A stretch of 64,000 nt of DNA, taken from contig CAJUOR010000001.1 in assembly GCA_910588165.1 (NCBI GenBank), forward strand, positions 5,433 to 69,432. The letters are read 5' to 3'. Positions within the stretch are counted from its first letter, which is position 1, and every line of letters begins with the position of its first letter. Under the pieces are notes generated by a model. It saw nothing but the letters and a program-made list of their open reading frames with translations, was not told the DNA's origin and searched no databases. The position numbers and the translations under genes are program-made. Below, in pieces: positions 28,231-33,154 of the stretch. This stretch comes from an uncultured Thomasclavelia sp. GTDB lineage: Bacteria > Bacillota_I > Bacilli_A > Erysipelotrichales > Coprobacillaceae.

Positions 28231-28986
28231 TTATCCCTGCTTCATCATCAAACGTGCCTTTTTGGCAGCTTTTAAAATAATATTTCTCGCTTCTATGGCC
28301 TCTTGCTTTGTTGCCGGATTGACATCTTTCAATGGATAATCCATCTTAAGATTCTCATATTTAACTACTCCCATCGTATGATACGGTAAAACATCTAGGG
28401 CTTTTAAATTACCTAACTTAGCAATAAATTCACCTAGTCTTTCTAAATGTTCTATTTTATCTGTCAACCCGGGAACTAAAACATGGCGAATCCATAAAGG
28501 GACATTTTTCTCATTCAAATAGGTTGCGAAATCTAAAATAGCTTCATTAGGTTGCTTAACTAAGTTTAGATGGACTTGAGGGTCGATATGTTTAATATCT
28601 AACATCACTAAATCCGTAACTTTCATCAATCTATCAAACTTCGCCAATTTCTCAGGTTGACGGCTAAATGTAATTCCTGATGTATCTAAACACGTATGGA
28701 TATGTAATTCATGACACTTTTCAAATAATTCAATCACAAAATCAATTTGAAGCAAGGGTTCACCACCTGTACAAGTAATACCACCCTTCTTATAAAACTC
28801 GGCTTTTGTGTTATACATCTGTAATATCTCATCGACGCTCATTAACGTACCGCAATTAGGTTGCCACGTATCAGGATTGTGGCAATAGGCACAACGCATT
28901 GGACAGCCTTGAAAAAAAACCACAAATCTTATACCCGGCCCATCTACTGTTCCACAGCTCTCTGTTGAATGTATATAAGCTTTCAT
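28231..28986 (-). CDS. pflA: Pyruvate formate-lyase activating enzyme (radical SAM)
   Basis: ESCGTVDGPGIRFVVFFQGCPMRCAYCHNPDTW contains the CxxxCxxC cluster motif and the glycyl-radical activase N-terminus. Confidence 0.92.
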   Translation of the reverse strand: MKAYIHSTESCGTVDGPGIRFVVFFQGCPMRCAYCHNPDTWQPNCGTLMSVDEILQMYNTKAEFYKKGGITCTGGEPLLQIDFVIELFEKCHELHIHTCLDTSGITFSRQPEKLAKFDRLMKVTDLVMLDIKHIDPQVHLNLVKQPNEAILDFATYLNEKNVPLWIRHVLVPGLTDKIEHLERLGEFIAKLGNLKALDVLPYHTMGVVKYENLKMDYPLKDVNPATKQEAIEARNIILKAAKKARLMMKQG

Positions 28987-29021
28987 TCCAATCACCACCT
29001 ACTATTATTTTATCACAAATT

Positions 29022-29054: not shown

Positions 29055-29354
29055 CTATTTTTCCATTTCTGCCACAATGTCTGCGAAAATTTTAGCTGCA
29101 TTGAAGTTTGCGAAATCTTCTTCGGAAACTAAAATAACTTTCTTATTAGGATCCATGGCTTTAATTTTGTCATAAGAACCTTTTAACTGTGGTGTTACTA
29201 ACACAACATCAGCTAATTTAATTGAATGTTCAACCGCATGTTCAGAAGCTGACCATACCATAACATCATTTCTTTTACGAGATGCTGCATCTTTTAATTT
29301 TGAAGCGAATAGTGTAGATGTTACACCTGCTAAGCAACATAATAAAATTCTCAT
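29055..29354 (-). CDS. PTS EIIB component, lactose/cellobiose family (orphan)
   Basis: MRILLCCLAGVTSTLFASKLK has the N-terminal phospho-Cys loop. 99 aa. No EIIA or EIIC gene nearby. Confidence 0.75.
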   Translation of the reverse strand: MRILLCCLAGVTSTLFASKLKDAASRKRNDVMVWSASEHAVEHSIKLADVVLVTPQLKGSYDKIKAMDPNKKVILVSEEDFANFNAAKIFADIVAEMEK

Positions 29355-29407: not shown

Positions 29408-29436
29408 TGAAAAGGTGCCAAAGCACCTTTTTTCAT
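29408..29436 (-). terminator. Hairpin after the 80-aa glycyl-radical domain gene
   Basis: AAAAGGTGC-caaa-GCACCTTTTTT palindrome. Confidence 0.6.
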
Positions 29437-29447
29437 CAAATCATTGC

Positions 29448-29690
29448 TTACATTGATTGGTGGAATGTACGTGCAATTACGTCATCTTGTTGTTCTTTTG
29501 TTAATTTAACAAAGTTAACTGCATAACCTGAAACACGAATAGTTAATTGAGGATATTTTTCAGGGTGTTTTTGAGCATCTAATAATGTATCTTTGTTTAA
29601 TACATTAACATTTAAGTGATGTCCGCCTTTTTCAGCATAGGCATCTAACATTTCTACTAAATTTTCAACTTGTTGTTTACTTGTTGACAT
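29448..29690 (-). CDS. Free-standing glycyl-radical domain protein (GrcA-like; equals the C-terminal domain of PFL)
   Basis: [59 protein letters not shown] carries the RVSGYAV glycyl-radical fingerprint. Own RBS AAGGAGAG upstream of the ATG. Confidence 0.85.
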
Positions 29691-29708
29691 AAATCTCTCT
29701 CCTTTTCG

Positions 29709-29915
29709 TTAATATAAGTCATCGTCGTCCATTGGCAAATTTGGAATCTTACAAGCGGTATCTCCGCTATCACAATCCATTTTTGATACAATGTTGACTT
29801 CATCTACTTGTAGCTTGCCGGGGGTATTGACCTTAACATTGATATGTCCTGCACCCTGTGCCATATTTTGATCCATCATTTTGATGAATGCTTCAATATC
29901 ATCTTTCTTTGTCAT
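29709..29915 (-). CDS. 68-aa protein, degenerate partial paralog of the start of the glycyl-radical domain, with a Cys-containing acidic tail
   Basis: DIEAFIKMMDQNMAQGAGHINVKVNTPGKL parallels [30 protein letters not shown] of the next ORF. No RVxG motif. Tail is MDCDSGDTACKIPNLPMDDDDLY. RBS is weak, so expression is uncertain. Confidence 0.5.
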   Translation of the reverse strand: MTKKDDIEAFIKMMDQNMAQGAGHINVKVNTPGKLQVDEVNIVSKMDCDSGDTACKIPNLPMDDDDLY

Positions 29916-29929
29916 CTTAAGACTTCTTT

Positions 29930-31996
29930 CTATTCATCAATTTTAATTGAATCGATATCTAAATCACCGGCAAATACTTGGTCATCTTTACCTAAAGCAT
30001 CCGGGATTACTGTAAATGTGTTTGAGATACCATCTTGTGCATCTTTGAATGGTAATTTAGCAACTGAAGCTAATGATGAAATAGCACCATGACTATCTCT
30101 ACCATGCATTGGGTTTGCACCAGGAGCAAATGGCTGTCCGCCTTTTCTACCATCAGGTGTATTACCTGTTGCTTTACCATAAACAACGTTAGAAGTGATA
30201 GTTAAGATTGAAGTTGTAGGTAAGCTTTCTCTGTAAGTGTGGTGAGAACGTACCATATCCATGAATGTTTCAACTAACCAAGCAGCAATTTCATCTGCTC
30301 TATCATCATCGTTACCGTATTTAGGGAAATCGCCTTCTACTTCGTAATCAACAACAACGCCATCTTCATCTCTGATACATTTTACTTTAGCGTATTTGAT
30401 TGCGGATAATGAGTCAGTTACAACTGATAAGCCGGCAATACCTGTAGCGAAATAACGTTTAACTTCTCTATCATGTAAAGCCATTTGAATTCTTTCGTAA
30501 GCATATTTATCATGCATATAATGAATGATGTTCAAAGCATTAACGTAAACGCCTGCTAACCAAGACATCATATCAACATATTTAGACTTAACATCTTCGA
30601 AATCTAAGTAGTCACCTTCTACCGGACGGTATTTAGGACCAACTTGTTTCTTAGTTTTTTCATCGATACCGCCGTTGATAGCGTATAATAAACATTTAGC
30701 TAAGTTAGCACGAGCTCCGAAGAATTGCATTTCTTTACCAACACGCATTGAAGATACACAACAAGCAATTGCATAGTCATCACCGTGTGTTACACGCATC
30801 AAATCATCGTTTTCATATTGAATTGATGAAGTTTCGATAGACATCTTTGCACAGTATGATTTGAATCCGATTGGTAAACGTGTAGACCATAAAACAGTCA
30901 TATTAGGTTCCGGTGCAGTTCCTAAGTTTGTCAATGTATGCAAATATCTGAATGAAGTTTTGGTAATCATGTGTCTACCATCAACACCGACACCACCGAT
31001 TGATTCAGTTACCCAAGTTGGATCGCCGGCAAAGATAGCATTGTAATCAGGTGTTCTCGCAAATTTAACGATTCTTAATTTCATGATGAAATGGTCGATA
31101 AATTCTTGAATTTGTTCTTCTGTGAAAACTCCGTTTTTCAAATCTCTTTCGACATAAATATCAATGAATGTTGACGTACGTCCTAAAGACATAGCCGCAC
31201 CATTTTGCTCTTTAACAGCTCCTAAGTAACCGAAGTATAACCATTGGATAGCTTCTTGAGCATTAGTTGCAGGTTTAGAAATATCGCAGCCGTATTTTGC
31301 AGCCATTTCTTTTAATTCACCTAAAGCTCTGATTTGTTCACTTAATTCTTCACGTAAACGAATGTTAGCTGAAGTCATTCTGGTTTGTGAAGTTGCAAAT
31401 TGATTCTTTTTATCTTCAATCAATTTATCAACACCGTATAAAGCGACACGACGGTAGTCACCGATAATACGACCACGTCCGTAACCATCTGGTAAACCGG
31501 TAATGATGTGGCTTGAACGACATGCTCTGATTTCCGGTGTATAAACATCAAATACACCTTGGTTATGAGTTTTTCTGTATTCTCTGAAAATATAAGAAAT
31601 TTCAGGATCTACTTTATATCCGTTTGTTTCGCAAGCTTGTTCCGCAATACGAATACCGCCAAAAGGTTGTAATGATCTTTTAAAAGGTTTGTCTGTTTGT
31701 AACCCAACAATTTTTTCTTTACTGCTATCTAAGTACCCAGCATCATGGCTTGTCAAAGTAGATACAATTTTTGTATCCATGTCTAAGACACCGCCGGCTT
31801 CTCTTTCCTGCTTGGTCAAATTCATGATTTGATCCCATAAGTCTTTAGTTGCCTGTGTTGGTCCGGCTAAGAAAGCATCGTCCCCATCATAAGGCGTATA
31901 GTTTAATTGGATAAAGTCTCTGAGGTCAACATCTTTGTTCCATTTACCCGGGCGGAAGCCTTCCCAGGCGTCATTCCATTTTTCTCTAAAAGTCAT
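29930..31996 (-). CDS. pflB: Pyruvate formate-lyase catalytic core (formate C-acetyltransferase) lacking the C-terminal glycyl-radical domain
   Basis: 688 aa with strong PFL collinearity, including the active-site ACCVS Cys-Cys. Ends ...[22 protein letters not shown], where canonical PflB continues into the radical domain. Confidence 0.9.
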
Positions 31997-32203: not shown

Positions 32204-32258
32204 TCAAACATTATAATATTATATTCTTACATGTTGATTTAACGGTCTTTATGGTGGA

Positions 32259-32317: not shown

Positions 32318-32659
32318 TTAACTTAATTCCTGACTGATTTCGCTTGCCAATGCCTCACTGGCTTTTCCGAAAATCACCGTCAATTTATCTTTAGAAACAA
32401 CAATCCCACTTGCACCTAAAACTTGCAGATTCTCACTACTTGCCTTTTGGACATTATCTAATATAAAAATAACCTTTGAACCATTGGCACTCACAGACTT
32501 AATGTTAGCTTTTCCTCCTAAAGCCTCACATAAGCGAACTAAATCAATCCCGCTTTTCACAACTTTTTTTCTTGACGTCTTGGCATGGGATAAATAATAC
32601 CAAATGCTTAAAGCTATAATCACAACTGCAACAATACCTATGACAATATAATTATTCAT
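32318..32659 (-). CDS. Membrane-anchored PTS EIIB(Glc)-like domain protein lacking the phospho-Cys
   Basis: N-terminal TM (IVIGIVAVVIIALSIWYYL), then LCEALGGKANIKSVSANGSKVIFIL, matching the EIIB-Glc pattern LGGxxNIxxxxxCxTRLR with C-TRLR replaced. Start set at MNNY after a GGAGG RBS. Confidence 0.6.
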   Translation of the reverse strand: MNNYIVIGIVAVVIIALSIWYYLSHAKTSRKKVVKSGIDLVRLCEALGGKANIKSVSANGSKVIFILDNVQKASSENLQVLGASGIVVSKDKLTVIFGKASEALASEISQELS

Positions 32660-32728
32660 GATTTTATCCTCCGAAATCTTTTCTTTTTTTAAACAAATAT
32701 AGTATACTATATTTTGAGGTGATTTCCT

Positions 32729-33154
32729 ATGAAAATTATCAAAGCCTATACACAAAAACACTTTTTTGAAGCTATGATGATTAGAGGCAGAGTCTTTGTC
32801 GATGAACAACATGTCCCTTCATCACTTGAAATAGATGAACTTGACCAAAGCTGCTTACATATTTTATTATACGATGACATGAATCTGCCTAAAGCTGTCT
32901 TACGTCTTATCGAATATGAAGATTATTTTAAAGTCGGACGCGTCGCTGTCTTAAAGGAAAACCGACAACAAGGCTATGGCAAAAAACTTATGTTAGGTAT
33001 CGAAAATTTAGATACGGTTAAGGCAAAAGGTATGCTTAAGCTCGATGCTCAAGTAAGTGCAATTGATTTTTATCGAGCCCTCGGTTATACAATTGAAGAA
33101 GAACCGTTTGAAGAGGCCGGCATCATGCACTGCCATGCCTATAAAAAGCTATGA
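32729..33154 (+). CDS. GNAT family N-acetyltransferase
   Basis: RQQGYGKKLM acetyl-CoA-binding motif, 141 aa. Stop overlaps the start of the FtsW/RodA gene. Confidence 0.7.
   Translation: MKIIKAYTQKHFFEAMMIRGRVFVDEQHVPSSLEIDELDQSCLHILLYDDMNLPKAVLRLIEYEDYFKVGRVAVLKENRQQGYGKKLMLGIENLDTVKAKGMLKLDAQVSAIDFYRALGYTIEEEPFEEAGIMHCHAYKKL

Follow-up and report, generated by a model that had tools for sequence, protein, structure and literature searches.

Pyruvate formate-lyase (PFL) holds a central place in anaerobic carbon metabolism and, in the gut, belongs to the most abundant glycyl radical enzymes (GREs). Its textbook form is a single chain, and the spare part YfiD/GrcA comes into use only when oxygen has damaged the enzyme. 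We analyzed a stretch of 64,000 nucleotides (nt) from an uncultured Thomasclavelia sp. (assembly GCA_910588165.1, contig CAJUOR010000001.1, positions 5,433 to 69,432), hereafter called the window, in which PFL is encoded in pieces, with an open reading frame (ORF) of 68 amino acids (aa) lying between the genes for the catalytic core and for the radical-bearing subunit. This 68-aa ORF, its family and its likely role in a naturally split PFL are the subject of this study.

The most relevant published work concerns an engineered counterpart. When E. coli PFL truncated at residue 695 is combined with residues 61-127 of YfiD, the same two-piece architecture results; its pieces bind poorly and are poorly activated, but after activation catalysis is normal (Andorfer et al. 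2021, PMC8683613). Activation of this truncated pair is about 6-fold lower, whereas with full-length YfiD and truncated PFL there is no measurable binding and activation is 32-fold below that of oxygen-cleaved PFL; removal of YfiD residues 1-60 lowers radical installation 4-fold (PMC8683613). Oxygen-cleaved PFL keeps residues 696-733, including a beta10 strand that duplicates the first strand of YfiD and must move aside for YfiD, and loss of this segment lowers radical installation 32-fold and abolishes measurable binding (PMC8683613). Both oxygen-cleaved and truncated PFL are highly protease-sensitive (PMC8683613). That work left unclear why the duplicate beta10 segment, which moves aside, is needed for binding and activation of the spare part (PMC8683613). 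A 2026 review of GREs describes only YfiD-type spare parts for PFL, with no natural split PFL and no third PFL peptide, and in the literature that we searched no paper was found that deals with GrcA3, with a naturally split PFL or with a peptide such as the one encoded by the small ORF.

A glycine-less paralogue of the radical cartridge

Five consecutive genes on the minus strand of the window encode a 688-aa PFL core, the 68-aa ORF, an 80-aa GrcA3, a 99-aa protein resembling IIB components of the phosphotransferase system (PTS), and PflA. The core (29930..31996, minus strand) matches PF02901 (725.9 bits) and TIGR01255 (1121 bits, model positions 1-666 of 744), and it has the ACCVS cysteine loop and lacks the glycine-radical loop. 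The 80-aa protein (29448..29690, minus strand) is a glycyl-radical subunit with the sequence RVSGYAV, whose RVSGY is the sole glycine-radical motif in a motif scan of the 64-kb window. It scores 165.9 bits against a cut-off of 158 on NF038360, the NCBIfam model named autonomous glycyl radical cofactor GrcA3, spans TIGR01255 model positions 663-744 and has a PF01228 match at positions 49-106. The core and GrcA3 together span TIGR01255 end to end, and the 68-aa ORF (29709..29915, minus strand, ATG to TAA with the stop included) thus duplicates a segment of PFL and supplies no missing one. It belongs to an unannotated family of 60-80 aa that is specific to split PFL loci.

An earlier sequence-only reading had taken the ORF for a degenerate duplicate of the beginning of the radical domain, joined to a new tail, and our profile comparisons bear this out. 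BLASTP aligned the 68-aa protein with GrcA3 at 10 identities in 28 positions (E 7e-6). When a profile of 119 diverse members of the small-ORF family was compared by hhalign with a profile of GrcA3 sequences from related loci, family columns 1-33 aligned with GrcA3 columns 2-34 at a probability of 96.6% (E 6.3e-10, score 47.3), while 100 column-shuffled GrcA3 alignments gave a mean score of 9.1 (standard deviation 2.2) and a maximum of 19.8. Because the real score lies far above these controls, the N-terminal similarity is homology and not chance. The peptide strings quoted in that reading, the parallel to the first half of GrcA3 and the absence of the RVSGYAV loop were all correct, and so was its view that the duplication is not recent: over 33 aligned codons, nucleotide identity between the two genes is 52%, and the duplication is therefore old.

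The similarity is confined to residues 1-33 (29817..29915, minus strand), a radical-domain-like docking element delimited by hhalign, the shuffle control and the secondary structure predicted by AlphaFold2 (AF2). The N-terminal consensus of the family is x-I-D-D-[IL]-V-x-M-L-D-x5-G-x-G-H-x-N-[VI]. D15 and H24 are conserved at 90% or more in both family alignments, and G21 and N26 are so in alignment A3 only, which is weighted towards Lachnospiraceae forms; their equivalents D16, G22, H25 and N27 are invariant in GrcA3, and we take all four to correspond to LMD...GGQHLNV of E. coli PFL. The helix and beta10 strand (GGxHxNV) of the glycyl radical domain are therefore present in the 68-aa protein. 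Beyond column 33 hhalign gave no alignment of the family with GrcA3, and forced alignments had zero confidence. The idea that A-C-K-I-P-N-L is a diverged A-V-N-F-V-K-L, the segment following the radical glycine, was dropped as unsupported for the same reason; MAFFT had placed Ala54 of the 68-aa protein on Ala57 of GrcA3. Searches with the single sequence gave no Pfam match at E values up to 1, PF01228 included, and one NCBIfam match, to NF038360 (GrcA3) over residues 4-31, at 13.2 bits (E 0.069) against the cut-off of 158.

No glycine is found among the invariant or at least 90% conserved loop columns of either family alignment, and the 68-aa protein therefore cannot carry a radical. The window protein does have a glycine in its loop (CDSGD), and this Gly51 was considered as an alternative radical site and rejected, being unconserved across the family and replaced in Lachnospiraceae forms (SRTPLAC). 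Taken together, the 68-aa ORF is a glycine-less paralogue of the GrcA3 radical cartridge.

Conservation and linkage of the small ORF across split PFL loci

A first homologue search returned 50 proteins that are 51-85 aa long, with identities of 39-99%. When 1.84 billion representatives were searched with a profile, 151 clusters at 50% identity were matched; most are of 55-95 aa and none exceeds 130 aa, which means that no full-length PFL is among the matches. A profile of the diverse set matched at least 1220 clusters (90% identity), every one of them unnamed or labeled 'hypothetical protein' and none with a Pfam domain. Two fusion proteins of 126-130 aa (P0056 and P0057) were set aside, as their N-termini are unrelated (one is RimM-like) and they look like chimeric assemblies. 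Hosts of the family are Erysipelotrichales, Lachnospiraceae and other Clostridia, and gut Firmicutes with it number in the hundreds. The exact 68-aa protein occurs on 215 contigs, and Massilimicrobiota timonensis, Coprobacillus sp. and Allocoprobacillus halotolerans are represented in the cluster to which the core belongs, which places the window in a Coprobacillaceae-like member of the Erysipelotrichales.

Scanning species-representative genomes yielded at least 363 loci with the small ORF, and our genome-locus analyses cover the best 80 of these, from Erysipelotrichales and Lachnospiraceae (Eisenbergiella, Acetatifactor). All 80 have an intact ORF with its own start codon, and all 80 show the same order of core (75-94% identical), small ORF (34-68%) and GrcA3 (72-94%), usually followed by PflA. 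Three further subfamilies have an identical gene order, and three loci chosen via GrcA3 instead of via the small ORF contain the small ORF too. An independent metagenome scan with a third subfamily found a family ORF in 76 of 76 loci, with the arrangement unchanged wherever the flanks suffice; two of the 76 match the first 24 residues only and look like chimeric contigs (the chimeric-looking loci are L169 and L171). The small ORF is thus linked to core, GrcA3 and PflA in about 170 loci, and its neighbor is always a PFL-type core (TIGR01255). The sole real variant in order, GrcA3 - small ORF - PflA, is on a single metagenome contig (L166, 1-1158). The homologues and synteny that the sequence-only reading had proposed to look for are therefore both found.

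The ratio of nonsynonymous to synonymous substitution rates (dN/dS) of the small ORF is 0.21 in Erysipelotrichales and 0.10 in Lachnospiraceae; GrcA3 of these loci has values of 0.13 and 0.07, respectively. With an intact frame in every related locus examined, the 68-aa ORF is a real, conserved gene under purifying selection, and its linkage makes it a dedicated third component of a naturally split PFL, whose physical binding to the other components is predicted. It had also been suggested that the ORF is a relic of the event that split the gene. A non-functional relic, or a spurious ORF, would fit its location exactly at the split point and its duplication of the start of the downstream gene, but we regard this as practically dismissed: the ORF stays intact in the roughly 170 loci at 28-99% identity, is kept in Erysipelotrichales, Lachnospiraceae and other Clostridia and hence across two Firmicutes classes, has a dN/dS of 0.1-0.2, and bears an invariant Cys motif that is missing from the parent domain.

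The spacers around the ORF were compared as well. In the window the 68-aa ORF is in frame with the 80-aa one, from which it is separated by TAA plus 18 nt (29691..29708, minus strand) with a strong Shine-Dalgarno site for the GrcA3 gene (AAAGGAGAG), as had been noted before; nearly every locus has a GGAGG-type site ahead of GrcA3. Readthrough of the TAA into a fusion with GrcA3, another earlier suggestion, is rejected as a conserved mechanism, since just 29 of 64 loci share the frame and spacer lengths run from 2 to 177 nt. The 14 nt that separate the TAG stop of the core from the start of the 68-aa ORF (29916..29929, minus strand) contain a weak purine-rich, Shine-Dalgarno-like AAAGAAG, and similar stretches (AGAAAGAAGTG) precede homologues in Erysipelotrichales loci. 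With only this weak stretch before it, the 68-aa ORF is possibly translationally coupled to the core.

In Lachnospiraceae loci, strong hairpins occur in both the core-to-ORF and the ORF-to-GrcA3 spacers, without a consistent pattern. Many of these hairpins are long, with energies down to -61 kcal/mol (loci L026-L080 and L096-L171), and several are alike (e.g., AAGAATTTCTA...AGAATCGC), which suggests, as far as their sequences go, a repeated intergenic element. In the window, a promoter-like TTGCCA-16-TATATT lies within the last codons of the 68-aa ORF (29711-29738, minus strand), 5' of the ribosome-binding site of GrcA3; as a 10/12 consensus match it could give GrcA3 a separate transcript.

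The cysteine motif and possible roles of the 68-aa protein

The C-terminal half of the family, for which no relative could be detected, consists of a linker of variable length, the motif C-x(2-8)-A-C-x-[VI]-P-[TN]-[LM]-x-x-G-[LI]-D and an acidic tail. In the window protein the cysteine motif, delimited by family alignments and motif counts, is at residues 46-60 (MDCDSGDTACKIPNL; 29736..29780, minus strand), followed by the acidic tail at residues 61-68 (PMDDDDLY; 29712..29735, minus strand), which was read from the sequence and compared among subfamilies. Cys55 is the sole invariant column of the diverse alignment, and Cys48, Ala54 and Pro58 are conserved at 90% or more; the motif takes the form MDCDSGDTACKIPNLPMDDDD in Erysipelotrichales and MGCTDCSRTPLACSVPTLEQGLDD in Lachnospiraceae. 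The number of Cys is two in 45 of 71 representatives, three in 20 and four in six, with two positions conserved and a third Cys present in Lachnospiraceae forms. The 'Cys-rich acidic tail' described earlier is therefore acidic, with 9 Asp/Glu and 2 Lys/Arg in its 33 residues, but it is not Cys-rich; its 2 Cys are, however, the most conserved residues of the family. The tail is acidic in every subfamily and variable in sequence. Its likeness to the acidic tail of single-stranded DNA-binding protein (DDDxF) was considered and discarded, being confined to the Erysipelotrichales subfamily.

An AF2 monomer model built from 139 sequences (predicted local distance difference test, pLDDT, 68.8) has a helix at residues 4-19, strands at 24-27 and 40-43 and a short helix at 45-49; strand 24-27 is beta10-like and carries the GxGH[IV]NV motif. 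Foldseek searches with this model found no GRE and no solved fold (best E 4), whereas the GrcA3 model, used as a control (pLDDT 64.1), found YfiD (6OWR, E 3e-5) and E. coli PFL. Searched against PDB sequences, the family profile matched neither PFL nor YfiD and gave spurious helical matches only. Neither hhalign nor Foldseek found the C-terminal helix or the overall fold of YfiD 61-127 in the 68-aa protein.

The sequence-only reading had offered two functional roles, a decoy or placeholder at the docking site and a regulator of activation, and both are plausible leading hypotheses as judged from the sequences; the placeholder idea fits because the docking motif shared with GrcA3 is retained exactly. 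We tentatively favor, at somewhat less than an even chance, the reading that the 68-aa protein is a dummy cartridge, seated in the beta10 slot of the core until GrcA3 takes its place. Its N-terminal helix and strand retain the docking motif of GrcA3 and full-length PFL, I-D-x-L-V-x-M-L-D ... G-x-G-H-x-N-V. The near-invariant D15 and H24 (together with G21 and N26 in A3) coincide with GrcA3 invariants, and such exact retention of the barrel-insertion motif points to docking at the same beta10 slot, here of a radical-less core. The cysteine loop would then project to where the glycine finger meets the catalytic Cys-Cys pair, and the dummy would keep the open, protease-prone core folded and shield its active-site thiols before being swapped for GrcA3, the sole part able to carry the radical installed by PflA. 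The filling of the slot, the swap for GrcA3 and the part played by the cysteines are all steps that we infer.

Several points weigh against a dummy cartridge. Hairpins lie in both spacers, and they do not consistently indicate co-expression of the ORF with the core over GrcA3. The AF2 model, which resembles no solved fold, is of moderate confidence (pLDDT 68.8). If the small protein did nothing but compete with GrcA3, the enzyme would be inhibited unless exchange is favored, and a simple filler role leaves the strict conservation of two Cys and the acidic tail unexplained. Finally, the E. coli 696-733 segment helps the spare part to bind, beyond blocking the site (PMC8683613).

This last point favors a permanent third subunit or assembly factor in a core : small protein : GrcA3 complex, i.e., a trans-encoded form of the 696-733 'recognition element'. 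By analogy with E. coli, the small protein would stand in for the N-terminal extension of YfiD that GrcA3 lacks (GrcA3 is YfiD minus this extension, covering TIGR04365 positions 58-126) and would promote docking of GrcA3 and access of PflA to the glycine loop, with its acidic tail or Cys loop contacting GrcA3 or PflA. Its homology to the helix-beta10 part of 696-733 and its obligate linkage to core, GrcA3 and PflA in about 170 loci are in keeping with such a subunit, as are the small accessory subunits of other GREs (discussed below). So are the E. coli data, where loss of 696-733 costs 32-fold in installation on YfiD, with binding gone, and loss of YfiD 1-60 costs 4-fold (PMC8683613). Against this, the kept barrel-insertion motif should compete with the identical motif of GrcA3 for one slot, and a second binding site needs no conservation of the same residues. 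We consider this arrangement a serious contender, though doubtful.

The conserved Cys pair raises another alternative, namely thiol-based control of radical or redox state. In one variant the small protein would act as a 'deactivase', quenching a glycyl or thiyl radical by H-atom donation; in the other, a disulfide or a metal site shared with the catalytic Cys-Cys would park the core in a protected state on exposure to oxygen. The invariance of Cys55, with a second Cys 2-8 residues upstream in essentially all members and a third in Lachnospiraceae forms, speaks for a function of this kind, the variable spacing would be typical of a redox loop and not of a fixed metal knuckle, the loop after the docking element would lie near the active-site funnel, and the hosts are oxygen-exposed gut anaerobes. 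But the protein matches no redox-protein family (no Pfam match, and in NCBIfam only the weak match to GrcA3), and two or three Cys cannot hold an Fe-S cluster alone; as a separate explanation we rate it as quite improbable, and it overlaps the placeholder model and does not exclude it. An extension of the dummy-cartridge reading that takes in the cysteines appears unlikely, although less so. According to it, a cysteine dummy would plug the core when the live cartridge is absent, maybe including the silent protomer of a half-site-reactive dimer, and its Cys pair would act on the catalytic Cys-Cys by forming a reversible disulfide, sharing a metal or donating an H atom, so that the core is stored oxygen-safe and radical-free and can be quickly re-armed. 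If true, such storage would be a new mode of control and protection for a GRE.

Neighboring genes and comparison with known systems

The gene for PflA, a radical SAM PFL-activating enzyme (28231..28998, minus strand), scores 298.6 bits on TIGR02493 against a cut-off of 231.75; the protein is 255 aa long from a GTG start in the mechanical ORF list and 251 aa according to gene callers (L081-L084). Given its small size, its Cys residues, the conserved motif towards its C-terminus and the nearby radical SAM gene, the 68-aa protein might also be the precursor of a ribosomally synthesized and post-translationally modified peptide, modified by the radical SAM enzyme and without a structural role in PFL. 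This is very unlikely, as the radical SAM neighbor is the canonical PflA, with Radical_SAM and Fer4_12 only and no SPASM or twitch match, the conserved neighborhood has no transporter or protease gene, and the N-terminal half of the peptide is homologous to the PFL radical domain. In Lachnospiraceae-type loci, pflA is followed by a gene for a 55-56-aa 2x[4Fe-4S] ferredoxin (L085 6427-6597, L089 6502-6669, L094 3814-3984), which may be the electron donor of the activase.

Directly after the GrcA3 stop lies a hairpin, AAAAGGTGC-CAAA-GCACCTTTT (29410..29431, strand not set), found by reading the sequence. It may be a bidirectional terminator closing the transcript of core, 68-aa ORF and GrcA3, a tentative assignment because the consensus terminator scan did not call it. 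The 99-aa PTS IIB-like protein (lactose/cellobiose type; 29055..29354, minus strand; PF02302, E 6e-10) is an orphan within the pfl cluster, with GrcA3 on one side and pflA on the other. In several Erysipelotrichales loci a PTS IIB gene also sits between GrcA3 and pflA, and in others it is a few kb off (L002, L006, L007, L010 and L025 are the loci listed). Upstream of the pfl cluster, the gene at 32318-32812 (minus strand) reads as membrane-anchored, with a C-terminal part that resembles PTS EIIB and lacks the usual cysteine; gene callers give it 113 aa, and it has no Pfam match. About 210 nt upstream of the core start is a promoter-like TCAACA-16-TATAAT (32210..32237, minus strand), a 10/12 match in a consensus scan that is not evidence of function. 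A DUF1858 gene is found upstream of the core, in divergent orientation, in L085 (2330-2530) and L089 (2408-2632).

Two observations concern the PFL pieces themselves. The C-terminal tail of the core after ALGK[DE]D is kept across loci as [QK][VI]F[AS]GD[LI][DE][LIV]D (ALGKDD in the window, with the tail at 29930-29980, minus strand), and this acidic tail may be a remnant of the opening helix of the radical domain (LAGLMDGYF in E. coli), i.e., a third degenerate copy. In L091 (4001-4270), an 89-aa GrcA3 homologue has a tandem-duplicated glycine loop; it is on a single ENA contig and so could be an assembly artefact.

Small accessory subunits are known from other GREs. The beta and gamma subunits of benzylsuccinate synthase (BSS) and the gamma subunit of 4-hydroxyphenylacetate decarboxylase (HPD) are Cys-containing proteins of 60-90 aa encoded beside the catalytic subunit, and they probably tune the glycyl-radical domain and the way in which it is activated. 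The PDB entries 4pkf and 9o8u, found in the structure search with the GrcA3 model, are complexes of GREs with such subunits. The BSS and HPD subunits each use four Cys to bind [4Fe-4S] clusters and have no relationship to the radical domain, whereas members of the small-ORF family typically have two or three Cys, short of the four needed per cluster, are paralogues of the radical domain and always have as partner a PFL-type core (TIGR01255), not an X-succinate synthase or HPD. The 68-aa protein is therefore not an Fe-S small subunit of the BSS/HPD kind.

With GrcA/YfiD, including GrcA3 (NF038360), the family from which it descends, the 68-aa protein shares the features of a small stand-alone protein encoded with PFL, with a homologous helix and beta10-like strand, and like them it presumably docks on a PFL without its own radical domain. 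It differs in having neither the C-terminal helix nor the ability to carry a radical, in lacking the RVxG[FYW] loop with the glycine conserved in PF01228, TIGR04365 (GrcA), NF008341 (GrcA2) and NF038360 (GrcA3), and in scoring far below the curated cut-offs of the GrcA models. While GrcA-type parts were already known, the third component is new: a dead radical-cartridge paralogue that is an accessory of a naturally three-piece PFL. Many Lachnospiraceae and Erysipelotrichales build PFL permanently from pieces and always include a third, undescribed one. Oxygen sensitivity limits GRE engineering, and knowing how cartridges dock, are swapped and are shielded is relevant to it; cultured hosts include Massilimicrobiota timonensis, Allocoprobacillus halotolerans and Lachnospiraceae bacterium YSD2013.

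Another close parallel is the E. coli 696-733 'recognition element', which also has a beta10 strand duplicating that of the spare part and no usable glycine, must share or vacate the cartridge slot, and matters for assembly and activation and not for catalysis (PMC8683613). The E. coli segment is a covalently attached remnant of damage, whereas the 68-aa ORF encodes a separate, selected protein with a Cys motif and an acidic tail. By sequence it is best described as a separately encoded homologue of the helix-beta10 part of 696-733, and by analogy the two may be functionally equivalent. Nature appears to have made into a gene of its own the very segment whose requirement in E. coli was left unclear, so that the question becomes testable with clean components.

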